A DNA stretch of 13,257 nucleotides from Treponema sp. (GCA_031290475.1 JAITNM010000033.1:1-13257), one strand, 5' to 3'. Numbered from the stretch's first letter, positions 1,325 through 13,216 are shown. Translations and numbers: made by a program. The notes: generated from the letters alone by a model not told the origin.

Positions 1325-1867
1325 TCAGTAATTCGCCGCCCTGATCCAGAAATAGCCTTTGGGGTGTTTGCACACCGGGCAAAGTTCGGGCGCTTTTTTA
1401 CCTACCACAATATGGCCGCAGTTAGAGCACTGCCATACCTGGTCCCCATCCCGTGAGAACACCAGGCCGCCTTCAAGGTTGGCGAGCAGTTTCTTATACC
1501 GCTCCTCATGTTCCTTCTCTATGGCAGCTACCATTTTGAAAAGGGCGGCTATGTCTTTAAAGCCCTCTTCCTCGGCGGTTTTGGCGAAACCGGCGTACAT
1601 ATCGGTCCACTCGTAGTGTTCCCCCGCAGCCGCATCCTTCAGGTTAGCGGCGGTATCGGGGATATCGTTGTTATGGAGCAGCTTAAACCAAATTTTGGCG
1701 TGCTCCTTTTCATTATCCGCAGTTTCCCGGAAAAGAGCGGCTATCTGGTTATAGCCTTCTTTTTCGGCTTTGGATGCGTAATAAGTATACTTATTACGCG
1801 CCTGAGATTCCCCCGCAAAGGCGGCCTGCAAATTAGCTTCTGTTTTTGAACCTTTAAGTTCAGACAT
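1325..1867 (-). CDS. rbr: Rubrerythrin (di-iron ferritin-like domain plus C-terminal rubredoxin-like CxxC...CxxC)
   Basis: Paired E..ExxH motifs ([16 protein letters not shown]; [16 protein letters not shown]), C-terminal CSNCGH...CPVCKH, GGAGGG RBS upstream of ATG at 1867. Confidence 0.9.
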
Positions 1868-1906
1868 ATCTACCCTCCAAAAGACGCGCCTGGCACGTAT
1901 TTTTTA

Positions 1907-1935
1907 AGCATAGACTTTTTATTTGCGGGTTTCAA
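1907..1935 (-). promoter_or_regulatory. Candidate sigma70-type promoter for rbr (TTGAAA-17-TATGCT on minus strand)
   Basis: -35 at 1930-1935 and -10 at 1907-1912 on the minus strand with a 17-nt spacer; about 35-nt leader to the RBS. Confidence 0.4.
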
Positions 1936-1971
1936 ACAAATTTTTCATAAAAACAAGGACTTTTGAAAAAA

Positions 1972-2226
1972 AACAACAATTCCAATTCAAAAACTGTCCG
2001 GCTTTTATCGGCCAACTGCCGTTTTTTCGTAATTTCCTCACTAATAAGACAGCAATTCAGTATTGAACGCCATCGAAAGTGCCTCAAGAGCATACTTGAG
2101 GGGTGGCGGCGAAAAAAACATGGGCGGGACCACCGGGAGGACCCGTGTTTTTTTCGGCCGACAGGACCCCAAGTAAATTTTTCAAGGCAAAATTTCAATG
2201 TCTTTGTTTGAATTTGGAATTGCTGG
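1972..2226 (+). repeat. Intergenic repeat element, copy A. Core 2093-2226 is ~98% identical to the inverted copy at 6158-6307; outer part 1972-2092 is ~70% similar to 6308-6420.
   Basis: Direct comparison with the reverse complement of 6158-6420. The core differs by 2 substitutions plus one 16-nt indel. It contains a GC hairpin flanked by A7 and T7. Confidence 0.75.
2112..2154. terminator. Bidirectional intrinsic terminator-like hairpin inside repeat copy A
   Basis: AAAAAAA-ACATGGG-CGGGACCACCGGGAGGA-CCCGTGT-TTTTTTT: a 7-bp GC-rich stem (one U.G) with an A-tract 5' and a T-tract 3'. Confidence 0.5.
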
Positions 2227-2228
2227 AA

Positions 2229-2259
2229 TAAAAAAGCCGCCTCGCAAGGCAGCTTTTTT
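2229..2259 (-). terminator. Rho-independent terminator downstream of rpsU (bidirectional, A6/T6-flanked)
   Basis: AAAAAAA-GCCGCC-TCGCAA-GGCAGC-TTTTTT: a 6-bp stem with one mismatch, 25 nt past the rpsU stop on the minus strand. Confidence 0.55.
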
Positions 2260-2283
2260 GAAATGGTCCTTATGACCCTAAGC

Positions 2284-2487
2284 TTAGTATTCCGTTTTCC
2301 CTTTCCGGGATTTCTTGAGAAGTTTTCGTTTTATCGCTTTCTTTTTCCTGTTCAAAATGGTGGAGGGTTTTTCGTAATATTCCCGTTTTTTATATTCCCG
2401 GATGATACCTTCTTTTTCGACCATCCGTTTAAACCGTTTGATAGCCTTTTCCAGTATCTCGTTATCATCTACGATGATATGCGCCAA
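2284..2487 (-). CDS. rpsU: 30S ribosomal protein S21
   Basis: Basic 67-aa protein; the block [27 protein letters not shown] matches the S21 signature (RRFKR...EVRRREFYEKP). GGAGGTGA RBS sits 7 nt before a TTG at 2487. The tracked GTG at 2496 lies inside the SD and is unlikely to be the start. Confidence 0.85.
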
Positions 2488-2527
2488 ACAAATCACCTCC
2501 TTTCCTGCCGGTCAATATGAGGCGCAT

Positions 2528-2547
2528 CTAAAAACTGAAGTTTTTAG
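2528..2547. promoter_or_regulatory. Perfect palindrome CTAAAAACT-GA-AGTTTTTAG in the rpsU upstream region
   Basis: 9-bp perfect arms with a 2-nt spacer, about 40 bp upstream of the rpsU start (minus strand). Confidence 0.4.
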
Positions 2548-2617
2548 AGATCCTCTATGGGCAAAGACTAACAAGGCGGTCCCCAGGTCAGCGACCCGCG
2601 AACCGCCCCTCCTTGCG

Positions 2618-3742
2618 TTACCAGTTCAGTTTACTGAATATCGCGTTTTTGTCAAGCAGGGGCCGGGCCATGAAGACATCGGGGTCCGCATTTTCTCCGG
2701 CTACCCTGATTTCCCAGTGCAGATGGGGTCCGGTGGCAAGCCCGGTGGACCCCGATAGCCCCAGGAGCGTTCCGGTTTCAACCAGTTCGCCTTCGTTTAC
2801 CCCCAGGGAATCCATGTGATAGTAAAGGGAATAAACCCCCGGAAGATGCTCAATAATCACCGAATTCCCGGTGACGATACGGGATCGCGCCAGGATGACC
2901 TTTCCCGGGGCGCAGGAAGTAACCGGCGTTCCCCTGGGCGCCCCGTAGTCGATCCCCGCGTGAACCGAGGCTTCGGTGGCGCCGGTCACGTAGCGAAACA
3001 TCCGGCGGTCCCCGAAAAAGCTCGTCCGCCGGGTGACGGTTACCGGAGCGGCAAAGGCTTCTTCGGCGTAGATGCTGCTTCCGGTACGGTTCAGGATGGC
3101 CCAGAGCCGGTTAGCCTCGCCGGTTTTTTGGGGATCCGGTTCGGTACGGATCGCGGTATTCCGCTCGTCCAGGTCGATGGTTTCAGAACCAAACTCCCTT
3201 TCAGGAACGGCAATCCCCAGTTCTTTTCCTTCAAGGCCTGTTATGCCTTCAACCACGACTTTGGCAAGCCCGGCCCGCATGGTGCTTGGTATGGTCAGGA
3301 GCGCCGCCAGCAATGCCGCGTTCGCGTCCGGGCCGGGACTTTTTTCATCCAGGGTGAAAAAGGCCGCCTTCCCCAGCCGTTCCCCTCCGGGGCTTACCAG
3401 TACCGCCCGGGGCGCCGAATTTACCGTACCTGTCTCTGGCCGGATAAATCCCCCCGGCAGGACCAGCGCCGCCACAAAAGGCTCCCCCGGCCGGGGGTTT
3501 TCGGGAAAGACTGCCAGGACCGGGGCGATAATGTTCCGCCCGGGAGGGGCAGGTTCCTGAGACGCCGGGACGGTCAATACCGGCGCGGCGCCGGAAAAGC
3601 TGGTTTCCGCCGCCGCCGCCAAGACGGTTTCCGCCCGGGGCGCATCTTCCGCTCCCGGCGGCGGGGAAGCGCAGGTGGAGGCGGCTAAGCTTAGGCTGAT
3701 GAAAAGCGCCGCCAGGAGTTTGTCGGGCTTTAGCCCTTCCAA
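2618..3742 (-). CDS. M23 family metallopeptidase (LytM/lysostaphin-like), secreted or lipoprotein, with an Ala/Pro-rich low-complexity linker
   Basis: C-terminal HAGIDYGAPRGTPV (HxxxD) and GPHLHWEIR (HxH) M23 motifs. The N-terminus has KPDKLLAALFISLSLAASTC, a signal peptide with a possible lipobox. The start is uncertain: a TTG at 3742 is proposed because the upstream 190 nt of open frame contains two perfect palindromes. The alternative is ATG at 3931 (437 aa). Confidence 0.75.
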   Translation of the reverse strand: MEGLKPDKLLAALFISLSLAASTCASPPPGAEDAPRAETVLAAAAETSFSGAAPVLTVPASQEPAPPGRNIIAPVLAVFPENPRPGEPFVAALVLPGGFIRPETGTVNSAPRAVLVSPGGERLGKAAFFTLDEKSPGPDANAALLAALLTIPSTMRAGLAKVVVEGITGLEGKELGIAVPEREFGSETIDLDERNTAIRTEPDPQKTGEANRLWAILNRTGSSIYAEEAFAAPVTVTRRTSFFGDRRMFRYVTGATEASVHAGIDYGAPRGTPVTSCAPGKVILARSRIVTGNSVIIEHLPGVYSLYYHMDSLGVNEGELVETGTLLGLSGSTGLATGPHLHWEIRVAGENADPDVFMARPLLDKNAIFSKLNW

Positions 3743-3746
3743 TAGA

Positions 3747-3772
3747 GAATTTTGCGATTTATCGCAAAATTC
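3747..3772. promoter_or_regulatory. Perfect palindrome GAATTTTGCGAT-TT-ATCGCAAAATTC
   Basis: 12-bp perfect arms in the recJ-to-M23 intergenic region; shares the GAATTTT(T)GC half-site with the palindrome at 3808-3838. Confidence 0.5.
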
Positions 3773-3807
3773 TACCTTGCAAACTCCCAAAGGAGCCGGT
3801 TTATCGG

Positions 3808-3838
3808 GAATTTTTGCTCCCTTATGGAGCAAAAATTC
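3808..3838. promoter_or_regulatory. Perfect palindrome GAATTTTTGCTCC-CTTAT-GGAGCAAAAATTC
   Basis: 13-bp perfect arms with a 5-nt spacer, about 64 bp centre-to-centre from the first palindrome. Confidence 0.5.
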
Positions 3839-3930
3839 ACAAGTCCGACAGGCTCCCAGGATCATTTTAACGGATACCGCGGAAAAGGCGCATTCGGCGG
3901 GAGGCCGCCTCTTTGTACCGGGTTTTTTCA

Positions 3931-6057
3931 TTAAACCCCGGTCCGCTTAAGATCGGTGATGATCATCTGGGGCGTTTCAATGCCGTTGAAAAAATTCCGG
4001 TTTACCTGGAATACTAAATCTACCTTGTCTTCCAAATCGAATTCTTTTTTTACCTTATCCGCAGCCTGCCAATACACCGCAGGCCATTTGTACTTTCCCG
4101 CATCCAGAGTGAGCTTTACATGTTTCGCCTCACTCTTTCCGATAAAGGACAGATCCGCCACCCGAAGGCCTTTGGCCATAAACACCAGAGGGCTGTTTTC
4201 TTCGCCGTAGGGCTCAAAACGATCCACTGTTTTAAAAATATCCGGAGTCAGGTATGCCTGGGGAAGCTCCGCATCAACAGTAACCGTGTTTTCCTTTTCC
4301 GCTTCCCCAAGTTCAATGGTACGGGAAGCCAGCTTGAGCCGTTCCAGAAAGGCTTCCCAATTTGCCATTTCCAGGCTGAAACCGGCGGCAAAATTGTGCC
4401 CGCCCCAGTCAATGAAAAATTCCGAGCAGGATTCCAACAGGGGCCGCAGTTCATAGCCCCTGGCGGAGCGGAAGGAACCTGTGGCGATTTCCCCGATAAA
4501 AGAGACCACCAGGGCAGGCGTCTTAAAGCGGTTTGCCAGGCGGTTCGCCATAATTCCTGTTACACCACGGGCAATGTTTTCCCCGGCGGCCATTACAAGC
4601 TTTTCTCCGAATAATTCAAGACTCTCCGCCGCCAGGGGCTCCACGATAGTCCAGATCTCCTCTCCCAATTTTTTCCGTTCTTCGTTCATACCGATGATTC
4701 CGGCGGCAAGGGTATCTCTGGTTTTAGGATCCTCTTCCATTAAAAGTTTAGCCGCCATGTCAGGGTTTCCCATCCTGCCTGCGGCATTGATGGCAGGACA
4801 TAGCTGCCAGGAAATGTCCCCCGCCCCGAGGTGTTTCCCGGCAAGGGAAAGCTTGAAGAGGAGATCCTGCAAACCCGGCCGGGGCGTTTTCTCTAAAGAG
4901 GCAATGCCGCTTCTCACGATGATCCTGTTCTCATCCCGCAGGGGCATGATGTCCGCTATGGTTCCCAGGGCGGCGAGCTGTAGATCCCTGCTGTCTTCGC
5001 CGGTAAAGTGGCGTTCCCGTCTTTGGAAGAACGTGGTAAACAGGTTAATGAAAACATCCAGTTCTTCCGCCGCCTTGGGGGAATACTTGGCAATCCGGGA
5101 AACTTCCCGCAGCCGGAGCAGGCTCTTCCCCGCGGTCTGGGGAATCTCCTTTCCGATCTCCTCCGCCATATCAAACATGCCTACTTCCACCGCGGAACCG
5201 AAAATTTTTGCAATGTTTTTTTTCTGGAGCTGCGCGTCCCACACAAATATCTCGTGCCCTTCAAGAAAAGCGGGGAGCCTGGTCCCGGAAATGTTCACCA
5301 TGCCCGGCACGACCGTCTCTGTTACCCTGCCTGTTACTACCAGGTTGCGCAGTTTTACTGCTTCAATGATGTACGCGTCATTTGAAGGCCTGGTATTAAG
5401 CAGGCACACCGAGTGGCCGTAGAGGCCGCTCTTCAGGGCAAAGCGCAGGGCGGACGCTAATTTGTATGCCACTCCGCACCCCGCAAGGTCCCGGAAAGGG
5501 TAGGAGGAGTCCTGCAGTTTGGGGTTTATAATAGCCAGCGCCGGGGGCAGTGTTTCCTGGGGGTTGTGGTGGTCGGTGATAATTACGTCGATTCCGAGTT
5601 CATTCGCCTTTTCAATTTCGGCAATACAGGAGATTCCGCAGTCAACAGTAATAATGAGGGTAATTGAATTTTGAACGCATTCCTCCACCGCTTCCACCGA
5701 AAGTCCGTAAGGATCATTCCCTACGGGGAGCCGCCAGGACGCTTCCATGCCAAGGCCGGAGAGGCAGCTTGTCAGGAGGGCAGTGCTTGTAATCCCGTCA
5801 ACATCCCGGTCTCCGAAGACCAGAACACGCTCTCCCTCTTCCTTGGCCGCCAGGATCCGGTCCACCGCATCCTCCATGGCGGAAAATTCAAAGGGATTTC
5901 TGAGATACCTGAGGTCATCTTCCAGGAAATACCGGATCTCCTCCCCGCCGGTGAGCCCCCGGCGCGCCAGAATCGACGCCGTAAGGAGATCGCAGCCGTA
6001 TTTCGCGGAGAGATCTTTTACCAATTCCTGAGGAATTTCCTTCTTTTCCCAAATCAT
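3931..6057 (-). CDS. recJ: Single-stranded-DNA-specific exonuclease RecJ (DHH/DHHA1 family)
   Basis: Motifs VLVFGDRDVDGITS and IITDHH (DHH), DWGGHNFAAGF (DHHA1 GGH); 708 aa; ATG at 6057. Confidence 0.9.
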   Translation of the reverse strand: MIWEKKEIPQELVKDLSAKYGCDLLTASILARRGLTGGEEIRYFLEDDLRYLRNPFEFSAMEDAVDRILAAKEEGERVLVFGDRDVDGITSTALLTSCLSGLGMEASWRLPVGNDPYGLSVEAVEECVQNSITLIITVDCGISCIAEIEKANELGIDVIITDHHNPQETLPPALAIINPKLQDSSYPFRDLAGCGVAYKLASALRFALKSGLYGHSVCLLNTRPSNDAYIIEAVKLRNLVVTGRVTETVVPGMVNISGTRLPAFLEGHEIFVWDAQLQKKNIAKIFGSAVEVGMFDMAEEIGKEIPQTAGKSLLRLREVSRIAKYSPKAAEELDVFINLFTTFFQRRERHFTGEDSRDLQLAALGTIADIMPLRDENRIIVRSGIASLEKTPRPGLQDLLFKLSLAGKHLGAGDISWQLCPAINAAGRMGNPDMAAKLLMEEDPKTRDTLAAGIIGMNEERKKLGEEIWTIVEPLAAESLELFGEKLVMAAGENIARGVTGIMANRLANRFKTPALVVSFIGEIATGSFRSARGYELRPLLESCSEFFIDWGGHNFAAGFSLEMANWEAFLERLKLASRTIELGEAEKENTVTVDAELPQAYLTPDIFKTVDRFEPYGEENSPLVFMAKGLRVADLSFIGKSEAKHVKLTLDAGKYKWPAVYWQAADKVKKEFDLEDKVDLVFQVNRNFFNGIETPQMIITDLKRTGV

Positions 6058-6119
6058 GTCTTATTCCGCACGTCCATGCAGGACGCGGCTTCCTTTTCCC
6101 TTGGAGGGGGGCTGGAAGC

Positions 6120-6148
6120 AGTATAGCAGGTAGGCCAAGGCTAAGCAA
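6120..6148 (-). promoter_or_regulatory. Candidate sigma70-type promoter for recJ (TTGCTT-17-TATACT on minus strand)
   Basis: -35 at 6143-6148 and -10 at 6120-6125 on the minus strand. The leader of about 55 nt contains a GCTTCC...GGAAGC hairpin. Confidence 0.4.
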
Positions 6149-6223
6149 GCAATTCACCCAGCAATTCCAAATTCAAACGAAGACATTGAAATTTTGCCTT
6201 GAAAAATTTACTTGGGGTCCTGT

Positions 6224-6238
6224 GCAACCTTCGGTTGC
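6224..6238. repeat. Mini-hairpin GCAACC-TTC-GGTTGC, present only in repeat copy B
   Basis: A perfect 6-bp stem with a 3-nt loop, sitting inside the 16-nt indel that distinguishes copy B from copy A. Confidence 0.5.
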
Positions 6239-6245
6239 TTGGCCG

Positions 6246-6289
6246 AAAAAAACACGGGTCCTCCCGGTGGTCCCGCCCGTGTTTTTTTC
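6246..6289. terminator. Bidirectional intrinsic terminator-like hairpin inside repeat copy B
   Basis: AAAAAAA-ACACGGG-...-CCCGTGT-TTTTTTT; here the stem is perfectly paired. It lies downstream of the flavoprotein gene on the minus strand. Confidence 0.5.
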
Positions 6290-6460
6290 GCCGCCACCCC
6301 TCAAGTACGTTATTGGGGCACTTTTTACGCCGGTTAATACTATGAATTGCAGCCTTATTGGGTAAGGAATCACTGAAAAAACTGGAGTTGGCCCGTAAAA
6401 ACCGGTTAATTTTCTGAATTGCGAATTGTTGCAATTCACCATTTAATCCTGCATGTGTTC

Positions 6461-7045
6461 TTAGGCTGTTACTGTTTCTCCTGCTTTTCTGCCTTGGGCC
6501 ATGGCTTTTGCGGCGGCATAGGCCGCCTGTTTCTTATAGTCATTGTTCCAGCGGTTGACGCTGATATAATCAAAGATCACGGCTCCCGTGTGACGGCAGA
6601 AACGGTCCATTTGTTCAAGACAGCTGAGCGCTCCGTTGCCGGAACCTCCCGGGGAGGCGACAAGCAGCGCCGGTTTGCCTGCAAAGGCCGAATCGGCCGC
6701 ATTGCCGTTGAACTGCTTTGTAGCTTCGCAACGGCGCAGGCGGTCAAAGAAATTCTTCAGGGCCTCTGCCATCTCTCCCCAATAGACCGGAGTGATAAAG
6801 CAGTAAGCCCCGGCGGACTTTATGCTTTCCTGAGCCCCGTTGAAACCGTCGCCGCCAAAGGCGCAGCGGTGCTGTTCCCGGCAGATCCCCCAGCCGTCGC
6901 CGCAAACGCGGCAGCGCTCAAGCTTCTCCAGGGTGAGTACTTCGTACTCCGCGCCGCCCTCCTTAAGCCCCCGGATGATTTCTTCCGTCACTGCATGACA
7001 GAGCCCGTCTTTTTTCGGATTCCCCGAAATGATAAGAAATTTCAT
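6461..7045 (-). CDS. Flavodoxin-like fold NAD(P)H-dependent FMN reductase / iron-sulfur-flavoprotein-like protein
   Basis: MKFLIISGNPKKDG N-terminus typical of the NADPH-dependent FMN reductase / flavodoxin-like fold. Compact Cys cluster CRVCGDGWGICREQHRC (Cx2Cx6Cx5C). AAGGAGGAG RBS 5 nt before ATG at 7045; the tracked upstream M at 7072 is less likely. Confidence 0.65.
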   Translation of the reverse strand: MKFLIISGNPKKDGLCHAVTEEIIRGLKEGGAEYEVLTLEKLERCRVCGDGWGICREQHRCAFGGDGFNGAQESIKSAGAYCFITPVYWGEMAEALKNFFDRLRRCEATKQFNGNAADSAFAGKPALLVASPGGSGNGALSCLEQMDRFCRHTGAVIFDYISVNRWNNDYKKQAAYAAAKAMAQGRKAGETVTA

Positions 7046-7056
7046 ACCGCTCCTCC

Positions 7057-7086
7057 TTTGCTTCTCCGGCATAAATCAAGTATAAT
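7057..7086 (+). promoter_or_regulatory. Candidate promoter TTGCTT-17-TATAAT in the divergent region (a second, TTGGAA-17-ATAATA, lies at about 7119-7147)
   Basis: Consensus-like hexamers upstream of the lipoprotein gene. The GTTCCA-N13-TGGAAC inverted repeat at about 7109-7133 lies between them. Confidence 0.35.
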
Positions 7087-13097: not shown

Positions 13098-13115
13098 GAA
13101 GAAGATAAATGGGGT

Positions 13116-13183
13116 CCGCGAATTACGCGAATTGATGTGAATTAAGATAGTGAATAATTCGCGTTCATTTGCGTAATTCGCGG
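13116..13183. repeat. Nested inverted repeat: [CGCGAATT]x2 ... [AATTCGCG]x2; outer arms CCGCGAATTACGC / GCGTAATTCGCGG
   Basis: 13-bp perfect outer arms (13116-13128 and 13171-13183); inner arms ACGCGAATT / AATTCGCGT (13125-13133 and 13157-13165); followed by an AT-rich stretch. Candidate terminator for the ABC operon and/or operator for the downstream gene. Confidence 0.5.
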
Positions 13184-13216
13184 ATAAAATTTTGATATTC
13201 ATTTTGGAGGTTTATG

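Follow-up and report, generated by a model that had tools for sequence, protein, structure and literature searches.

The stretch of DNA considered here, which we will call the window, is a complete contig of 13,257 bp, assembled from short reads and labelled 'MAG: Treponema sp.', that is, a metagenome-assembled genome (MAG) from a termite gut; all the coordinates given below are window positions. Five genes, all in the same orientation on the minus strand, occupy the region from 1325 to 7072: rubrerythrin (1325-1867), the ribosomal protein S21 gene rpsU (2284-2487), an M23 peptidase (2618-3931), RecJ (3931-6057) and a flavin mononucleotide (FMN) reductase (6461-7072). The three middle genes, assigned with Pfam, are enclosed by a pair of inverted repeats, and it is this pair, hereafter copies A and B, that we examine as candidate MITEs, or miniature inverted-repeat transposable elements. 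Both the pair and the three minus-strand genes that it encloses had been noticed in a reading made from the sequence alone (the sequence-only reading), and the pair is recovered by a repeat finder as well as by pairwise alignment.

Two inverted copies of one element

The repeat finder reports two inverted arm pairs, 2059-2159/6241-6341 (101 nt, 89%) and 2161-2226/6158-6223 (66 nt, 98%), which are separated by a 16-nt indel alone, and pairwise alignment carries the similarity outward to about 1974 and 6431. Copy A thus spans 1974-2225 on the plus strand (252 bp) and copy B 6159-6431 on the minus strand (273 bp); they are one non-coding element present in two opposite orientations. The outer limit first proposed for the pair, 6420, falls 11 nt short of the end of copy B. 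The contrast that had been described between a near-identical core and a weaker outer similarity holds, since 130 of the 133 positions are identical over 2093-2225 and only 93 of the 119 over 1974-2092 (Fisher p = 6e-7). The indel of the core corresponds to extra nucleotides in copy B (6224-6239, minus strand), AGCAACCGAAGGTTGC, which by alignment and folding form a small hairpin, GCAACC-GAA-GGTTGC. The AT-rich islands in which the copies had been said to lie are real but mild, with a GC fraction of 0.42 and 0.47 for the two intergenic regions and of 0.44-0.45 for the elements, against 0.53 for the window.

Both copies are bounded by a terminal inverted repeat (TIR) of about 19 bp, CAGCAATTCCAAATTCAAA, and when the region is folded, this repeat closes each copy on itself. 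At the inner-side end of each copy, read on the outward strand, this sequence is found in full (19/19): the 3' TIR of copy A occupies 2207-2225 on the minus strand, and that of copy B 6159-6177 on the plus strand. The outer-side ends are degenerate inverted versions of it. The 5' TIR of copy A (1974-1993, plus strand) reads CAACAATTCC-AATTCAAAAAC, or CAACAATTCC-AATTCAAA as it is also written, and differs from the consensus by one substitution and one deletion; the 5' TIR of copy B (6409-6431, minus strand) reads CAACAATTCGCAATTCAGAAAAT, also given as CAACAATTCGCAATTCAG. A motif search finds this end motif four times in the window where 0.06 occurrences are expected, so that chance is excluded.

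Immediately outside these ends, each copy is flanked by a short direct duplication, as left by the insertion of a mobile element. For copy B the duplication is perfect (9/9), with CAATTCACC on the plus strand at both 6150-6158 and 6432-6440. For copy A, GAAAAAAAA at 1965-1973 matches GAATAAAAA at 2226-2234 at 8 of 9 positions, and the right-hand duplication overlaps the T-tract of the rpsU terminator.

Both copies fall below the size of about 600 bp that bounds MITEs. The open reading frames (ORFs) across them have no Pfam match, and a search of the window finds no tRNA or tmRNA. An 89-aa ORF called by the Joint Genome Institute (JGI) on copy B raised the possibility that the element encodes a small protein; this was rejected, as the frame is lost in copy A through the 16-nt indel and the ORF has no Pfam match.

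The insertion sequence family sharing the ends

An exact scan for the 19-mer of the inner-side ends, with one genome per species, brings up at least 118 public loci in which it forms the ends of insertion sequences (IS). Among the listed matches, most are cyanobacterial (Nostoc, Chamaesiphon, Pseudanabaena, Leptolyngbya), and the others include Anaerolineales and 10 loci of termite-gut Treponema and Spirochaetaceae MAGs; many of the listed matches are found at the ends of contigs, where repeats come to lie when short reads are assembled. The same ends bound insertion sequences of 1.34-1.55 kb that encode a DDE transposase, carry the NCBI label 'ISNCY family' and also show 9-bp duplications. 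Full-length elements with these ends are found at L079, L120, L010 and L015. L079 is a contig of 1431 bp with the repeat at both sides, and it encodes a 442-aa protein that has a weak, sub-threshold match to DDE_Tnp_1 in Pfam and no match to any NCBIfam model, and whose homologues on plasmids bear the annotation 'ISNCY family transposase'. Both flanks of the Acaryochloris copy read CTTCTTTGA. Across the public loci that were fetched, 40 TIR-bounded units of 120-2850 bp could be delimited, and 18 of them, full-length and miniature ones alike, have direct flanks of 9-10 bp; copy B of the window is a further case, beyond these 18.

The family is also present in the clade of the host. L010 (1338 bp) and L015 (1346 bp) are full-length copies in Treponema/Spirochaetaceae MAGs, and their transposase genes are frameshifted. 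The L015 protein is 37% identical to a Nostoc transposase (E = 1e-77), and a search with it at E <= 1e-30 retrieves 1769 homologues. Many of these proteins, of 428-435 aa, are intact and encoded on contigs of 1.3-2 kb. Among the homologues are proteins from Treponema MAGs and one that bears the name ISNCY family transposase; PF01609/PF13808 is present in some.

Miniature relatives occur there as well. In Treponema Gsp477_bin179, elements of 284-298 bp have the same ends and an interior that aligns with the window copies over about 170 bp. This genome holds at least six copies or fragments of the related MITE of about 290 bp, at L017 (190-445, 2743-3040 and 3040-3284, the last two abutting), L019 (2845-2931 and 6550-6719), L059 and L096. 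The search for other copies that the sequence-only reading had suggested was productive too, as two more close copies turned up on other contigs when the 89-aa copy-B ORF of JGI was used as a probe. The close copies known are therefore four, A, B, L172 and that of the P0141 contig. L172, which comes from the same sample as the closest relative strain of the window, follows an arabinofuranosidase gene at a distance of 64 nt and in the same direction, and the end of the contig truncates it. We also considered that the element might be a deletion derivative of the IS, and rejected this, since in a BLAST of the copies against all loci the full-length elements match at the terminal repeat only.

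Terminal repeats, duplications, family and further copies thus argue together for MITE insertions rather than for a local duplication or a dedicated inversion switch. The two arms are very probably two independent insertions, in opposite orientations, of a non-autonomous MITE belonging to the DDE-transposase IS family that NCBI labels ISNCY, and S21, the M23 peptidase and RecJ are passengers that lie between these insertions and outside the element. Of the two explanations that had been left open for the pair, a dispersed non-coding repeat of the MITE type is the one that is borne out, by the ends identical to those of a transposase-encoding IS, by the 9-bp duplications and by the further copies on other contigs. 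With a full-length copy providing transposase in trans, the enzyme would bind the terminal repeats of about 19 bp, excise the unit of 252-273 bp and insert it at a staggered 9-bp cut, the repair of which would leave the duplication. Here the terminal repeats, the duplications, the family and, in related Treponema, the intact transposases are direct observations. The cut-and-paste chemistry and an active partner in this genome are what we infer.

A palindromic module nested in the element

The interior of both copies holds a palindromic module that is a repeat in its own right. It extends over 2073-2198 on the plus strand in copy A and over 6186-6330 on the minus strand in copy B, with predicted folds of -50.2 and -53.2 kcal/mol, respectively. 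A hidden Markov model (HMM) built from seven canonical free-standing copies matches both over nearly the full length of the model (2080-2195, E = 4.5e-13; 6321-6189, E = 7.8e-12). The corresponding covariance model, R1, scores 72 bits on copy A (E = 4.7e-15) and 30.5 bits on copy B, where the score is low because of the 16-nt insert; it reports 21 sites in all, namely both window copies and 19 others. Enclosed by the longer stems of the module, the A7-GC hairpin-T7 structure described in the sequence-only reading is present in both copies. It consists of A7, a 29-nt hairpin and T7, and so resembles an intrinsic terminator on either strand, at 2112-2154 in copy A (-26.6/-22.6 kcal/mol for plus and minus strand) and at 6288-6246 in copy B (-36.4/-34.5 kcal/mol, by strand). 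What had been taken for an element placed at two terminators is, however, the reverse arrangement: the A7-hairpin-T7 structure is cargo within the element, as part of a nested palindromic repeat.

The free-standing copies were retrieved by scanning metagenomes with a short core pattern, fixed on the 3' side of the module, which returned 45 loci, about 15 of which hold a free-standing palindrome of 117-141 nt. In canonical copies it begins with CAGAAATGTATGCCyyAATAAAGTACTTGAGGGGTGkCrG and continues with an A-run, a GC hairpin that varies, a T-run and CyGACAGGACCCCArrTAAATTTTTTAGGCATACATTTCTG, or, as a scheme, CAGAAATGTATGCC...TACTTGAGGGGTG-[A-run, variable hairpin, T-run]-GACAGGACCCC...AATTTTT...GGCATACATTTCTG. 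It is built on a 15-bp outer stem, CAGAAATGTATGCCT/AGGCATACATTTCTG, with an invariant GGGGTG on the 5' side, GACAGGACCCC on the 3' side (the conservation of which is a product of the 22 fixed positions of the retrieval pattern) and a variable apical hairpin. These features, GGGGTG and GACAGGACCCC boxes, a bulged AGG and the variable apical hairpin, are found on termite-gut-type metagenome contigs at L121 1817-1935, L134 1697-1814, L163 1404-1521 and L159 416-532, and likewise at L128 2202-2342, L131 1128-1267, L145 971-1111 and in L137, L142, L143, L148, L160 and L139. The modules are intergenic, and about 10 of the 13 copies that can be assessed are co-directional with the preceding gene, 18-185 nt past its end. 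No duplication was found around the free-standing copies, and no IS partner for the module's own 14-bp ends was found among the fetched loci.

The covariance analysis that had been proposed, when run across the module copies, shows that pairing is kept through compensatory changes. In an alignment of 12 module sequences, the paired fraction of cells is 82%, whereas shuffling the columns gives 72.5% and sliding the partners 35-51%. In 22 pairs both members change, and the apical hairpin is wholly different between copies and yet still paired. The forward strand has 78 G.U against 22 A.C pairs, a count made on mutually related sequences in an alignment fitted to the model. Whatever their function, repeats of this type and MITEs can be expected to be palindromic. 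We consider that the module most likely acts in RNA, as a (possibly bidirectional) intrinsic terminator or 3'-end hairpin, judging from its structure and its position behind genes. Being imperfect palindromes located 3' of ORFs, the modules were also considered as integron attC sites; this was rejected, as by eye they are without GTTRRRY/RYYYAAC boxes and their conserved part is central, not terminal.

Several other structures accompany the modules. An extra inserted hairpin, TAGAAGCCGCGAAAGCGGCTTCTA, is found in L128 (about 2240-2300), L131 (about 1165-1225) and L145 (about 1005-1065), and larger inserts in L139 and L160; these added hairpins lie 5' of the main hairpin, the insert of copy B 3' of it. 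It seems that additional stem-loops are tolerated by the module or attracted to it. A further hairpin-like block, TCTAGCGTnnTATGTCACCTAACGACACTATATATAGCGGATACTGATC, adjoins the modules upstream in L121 (about 1745-1816), L128, L131 and L134 and downstream in L139, which suggests further nested repeats.

The element may itself be composite around this module. In the left arm of copy A, the motif search finds an internal TIR-like sequence, CAGCAATTCAGTATTGA (2050-2066, plus strand, two mismatches), and the corresponding column is conserved in copy B (about 6352-6336) and in the Gsp477_bin179 MITEs, which hints at a nested or stepwise origin of the element. The 252-bp unit may have grown out of a shorter TIR-module-TIR element of about 176 bp.

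The uneven similarity of the two copies can be read in the same light. The core is a second repeat nested in the first, and not simply its conserved part. Copies A and B are 74% identical in the left arm and 98% in the core, and against the third copy, L172, the values are 74-80% for the left arm and 91% for the core. The tree of the core, which joins A with B, conflicts with that of the left arm, which joins B with L172, as it does when a sequence is of mosaic origin or when A and B have undergone gene conversion. The comparison of these sequences points to a core that is more constrained across the family and that A and B would additionally share through mosaic origin or gene conversion; the two explanations that the sequence-only reading had offered for the contrast, gene conversion and constraint, are thus both supported.

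The most serious rival to MITE insertion, though an improbable one, is that the core is a chromosomal structured-RNA gene, for a small RNA or a cis-regulatory RNA, present in two copies whose flanking similarity is incidental. Several features speak for it: the whole element folds much better than its shuffles (z = -4.1 for the plus and -7.6 for the minus strand), the module has the compensatory pair changes and the excess of G.U on one strand described above, and copy B is placed 5' of recJ and shares its direction. The unit bounded by duplications is, however, the entire element of 252-273 bp with its IS-type ends, and not the core. Copy A is moreover directed away from any downstream gene, and the fold amounts to a simple long hairpin with runs of A and T, of the sort found in terminators and in MITEs. 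A match to a known RNA family, which had been proposed as a check, was looked for in Rfam at E <= 1, and neither the window nor 13 loci that hold canonical modules gave a relevant one; in the window the spurious matches were MIR2617 at 13115-13183 and CcsR1 inside the FMN reductase gene.

Relatives, gene order and effects on the neighbourhood

The closest relative, L169 (about 93% nucleotide identity), has the FMN reductase, recJ, M23 peptidase and S21 genes in the same order and orientation as the window. At site A, its homology to the window stops exactly at 2226, the outer edge of copy A. At site B, the element of L169 has its own terminator-like hairpin, AAAACCT-TCG-AGGTTTT, and its 3' junction, with ..GAATTGCTG before the boundary and GGT after it, coincides with that of copy B; the flanks are 93-97% identical, while the interior can barely be aligned. 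The element at site B has in L169 been replaced or converted at a fixed site, and, as this comparison suggests, both insertion positions turn over between close strains. In the more distant relatives L166, L167 and L168 (5676-7004), with RecJ 73-76% identical, the order is RecO-PYNP-RecJ-M23-S21, and the stop of the pyrimidine-nucleoside phosphorylase (PYNP) gene overlaps the start of recJ; in the window and in L169, it is the FMN reductase that precedes recJ instead of PYNP. Relative to these genomes, both breaks of synteny coincide with the positions of the MITEs.

These breaks are one of the reasons to ask whether the pair is an invertible-segment system that flips the rpsU-M23-recJ block, either as a programmed switch or through recurrent RecA-mediated inversion. 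About 133 bp at 98% identity in inverted orientation would be enough for homologous recombination, and MITEs have been reported as hot spots of recombination (PMC10969869). If A and B crossed over, 2226-6158 would be inverted and the two duplications would trade their inner halves, and yet each copy retains its own matched duplication; the present arrangement is thus that at insertion, with no net inversion since. The five genes from 1325 to 7072 are at present co-oriented, L169, the sole comparable assembly, has the same order and orientation, a single A-B inversion would not bring PYNP next to recJ as in the distant relatives, and no site-specific recombinase or invertase is found among the window ORFs with Pfam assignments. 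We therefore regard such a system as very improbable. Of the proposal that the pair is an inversion substrate, what stands is the passive part: RecA-mediated inversion of the 3.9-kb block could in principle occur as a by-product.

Least probable of all is that the pair is an old local inverted duplication, or a metagenome misassembly joined through the repeat, a view that could draw on the presence of only two copies within a 13-kb contig, on the short-read MAG as a source and on a neighbouring synteny unlike that of the relatives, but which is contradicted by ends identical to those of a widespread IS family, by further copies in unrelated contexts, by the FMN reductase-recJ-M23-S21 joins that the independent assembly of L169 confirms, and by the perfect or near-perfect duplication at each copy, which neither segmental duplication nor a misjoin explains and which, being matched, also argues against misassembly through the repeat.

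Several observations weigh against insertion of MITEs as set out above. The duplication of copy A, at 8/9 and within an A-rich tract, is weaker than that of copy B, and three complete MITEs of Gsp477_bin179 are without a clear 9-bp duplication. At site A, the 29 nt that follow in L169 are unlike the far flank in the window, and site B of L169 holds a different, 5'-truncated member of the family (1628-1815). No clean empty site was found in L169 and the other relatives compared; as predicted, such sites would read ...CTTTTGAAAAAAAA followed by GCCGCC... at A (plus or minus one mismatched base) and ...TTAAATGGTGAATTGCTTGCTT... at B. In this comparison, the relatives whose RecJ is 73-76% identical lack synteny in the flanking regions, and the members of the rubrerythrin cluster, at about 79-80% nucleotide identity, lie in another context. 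As for the module, its terminator function is inferred from sequence only, and its set was retrieved with a pattern fixed on the 3' side.

Copy A lies directly past the intrinsic terminator of the rpsU operon (2232-2262, minus strand; 13-bp stem and T-run, -17.2 kcal/mol; conserved in L169), in its T-tract, and a promoter-like site for rubrerythrin (1935-1907) lies outside it. A promoter scan was at chance level, with 4 hits against 3.1 expected, and is not used as evidence. Copy B sits between the stop of the FMN reductase gene and the stretch upstream of recJ, 6149-6058, which is about 97% conserved in L169. This stretch contains, by eye, TTGCTT-17-TATACT, because of which recJ probably keeps its native promoter. 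The module of copy B lies 130 nt downstream of the FMN reductase gene and is co-directional with it, and no other hairpin is found in the 29 nt between the stop of this gene and copy B; because of this, the module is the likely terminator of FMN reductase, and copy B would end the FMN reductase transcript ahead of recJ.

A few other features of the region were observed. The M23 peptidase ORF has 437 aa in the window, with a start that overlaps the recJ stop, and 272-312 aa in relatives (L169 4324-5220, L166 9304-10122); this additional N-terminal part may be genuine or may be an artefact of the start codon chosen. The short spacer between the convergent RNase HII and rubrerythrin genes holds a direct repeat of 26 nt in tandem (1262-1313; 77% identical, repeat family D7). 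At 13115-13184, just past the second FtsX gene and ahead of the partial ORF in which the contig ends, there is an inverted repeat with 30-nt arms (83% complementary) and a 10-nt loop, rich in CGAAT/ATTCG, to which the spurious MIR2617 match (E = 0.75) corresponds; a similar string, ATTCGCGTAATTCG, adjoins the module in L134.

Known analogues and significance

The element is of a known kind, and what is mildly novel about it is the family of nested modules, of which neither Rfam nor the literature searched has a description. The window copies have in common with the ISNCY-labelled IS of cyanobacteria, Anaerolineales and Treponema (1.34-1.55 kb, with CAGCAATT... ends) both the 19-bp ends and the 9-bp duplication, but, unlike them, they do not code for a transposase. 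The name ISNCY stands for a provisional grouping ('not classified yet') and not for a defined family; within it, the ISMae2 group of ISfinder has 9-bp duplications, which is an unconfirmed lead. The closest parallels among MITEs mobilised by DDE IS are Nezha and Chunjie, which are likewise small, non-coding and intergenic, with the ends of a transposase-encoding IS, direct duplications and a strongly folding palindromic body. Chunjie of Geobacter has a 9-bp duplication, and one copy of Nezha, found in Anabaena/Nostoc with ISNpu3, is listed with a 10-nt direct repeat (PMC3184786, PMC6042816). The present element differs from both in its host, a termite-gut Treponema and not a cyanobacterium or Geobacter, and in its interior, which holds a second nested repeat and is not an IS deletion derivative. 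Nezha is likened here by description only, so that the cyanobacterial TIR-bounded units of 120-260 bp may or may not be Nezha; in the Nostoc punctiforme plasmid homologue L119, the same ends were not seen by eye in two end segments.

For the module, the described repeat that it most resembles, by analogy, is SPRITE of S. pneumoniae, a dispersed repeat like a Rho-independent terminator, enriched at gene 3' ends, without known IS partner and inserted in other repeats (PMC3049150, PMC10969869). Like SPRITE, the module is a dispersed intergenic hairpin with a T-rich tract, near gene 3' ends, with no recognisable IS partner and no clear duplication, and it too is seen within or beside other repeats; unlike it, it is longer (117-141 nt) and is the cargo of another MITE, and sequence and host are unrelated. 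The Correia elements of Neisseria, which duplicate TA, are also MITEs with terminal inverted repeats, but differ from the window copies in ends, size and duplication. They affect neighbouring transcription, may function as terminators or promoters and can be substrates of recombination or inversion (PMC10969869). For the window copies, there is no evidence of promoter activity or of inversion.

What could have passed for a candidate inversion switch or a new RNA around rpsU, the M23 peptidase gene and recJ is thus ordinary mobile DNA, and the matched duplications provide a simple internal test that the block has not been inverted and that the contig has not been misjoined. An IS family best known from cyanobacteria is documented, together with its MITEs, in termite-gut Treponema, and its 19-bp ends are identical even though the transposases are only 37% identical. 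A MITE that carries a terminator-like repeat as cargo, with no Rfam entry, may help to annotate termite-gut MAGs, in which such repeats break contigs. It is conceivable, though we hold it rather doubtful, that the module is an undescribed family of mobile terminator or 3'-end hairpins, selected at the RNA level in termite-gut spirochaetes and their neighbours and spreading both alone and as cargo of IS-derived MITEs. If this were true, transposition would bring ready-made bidirectional terminators between the genes of the host.

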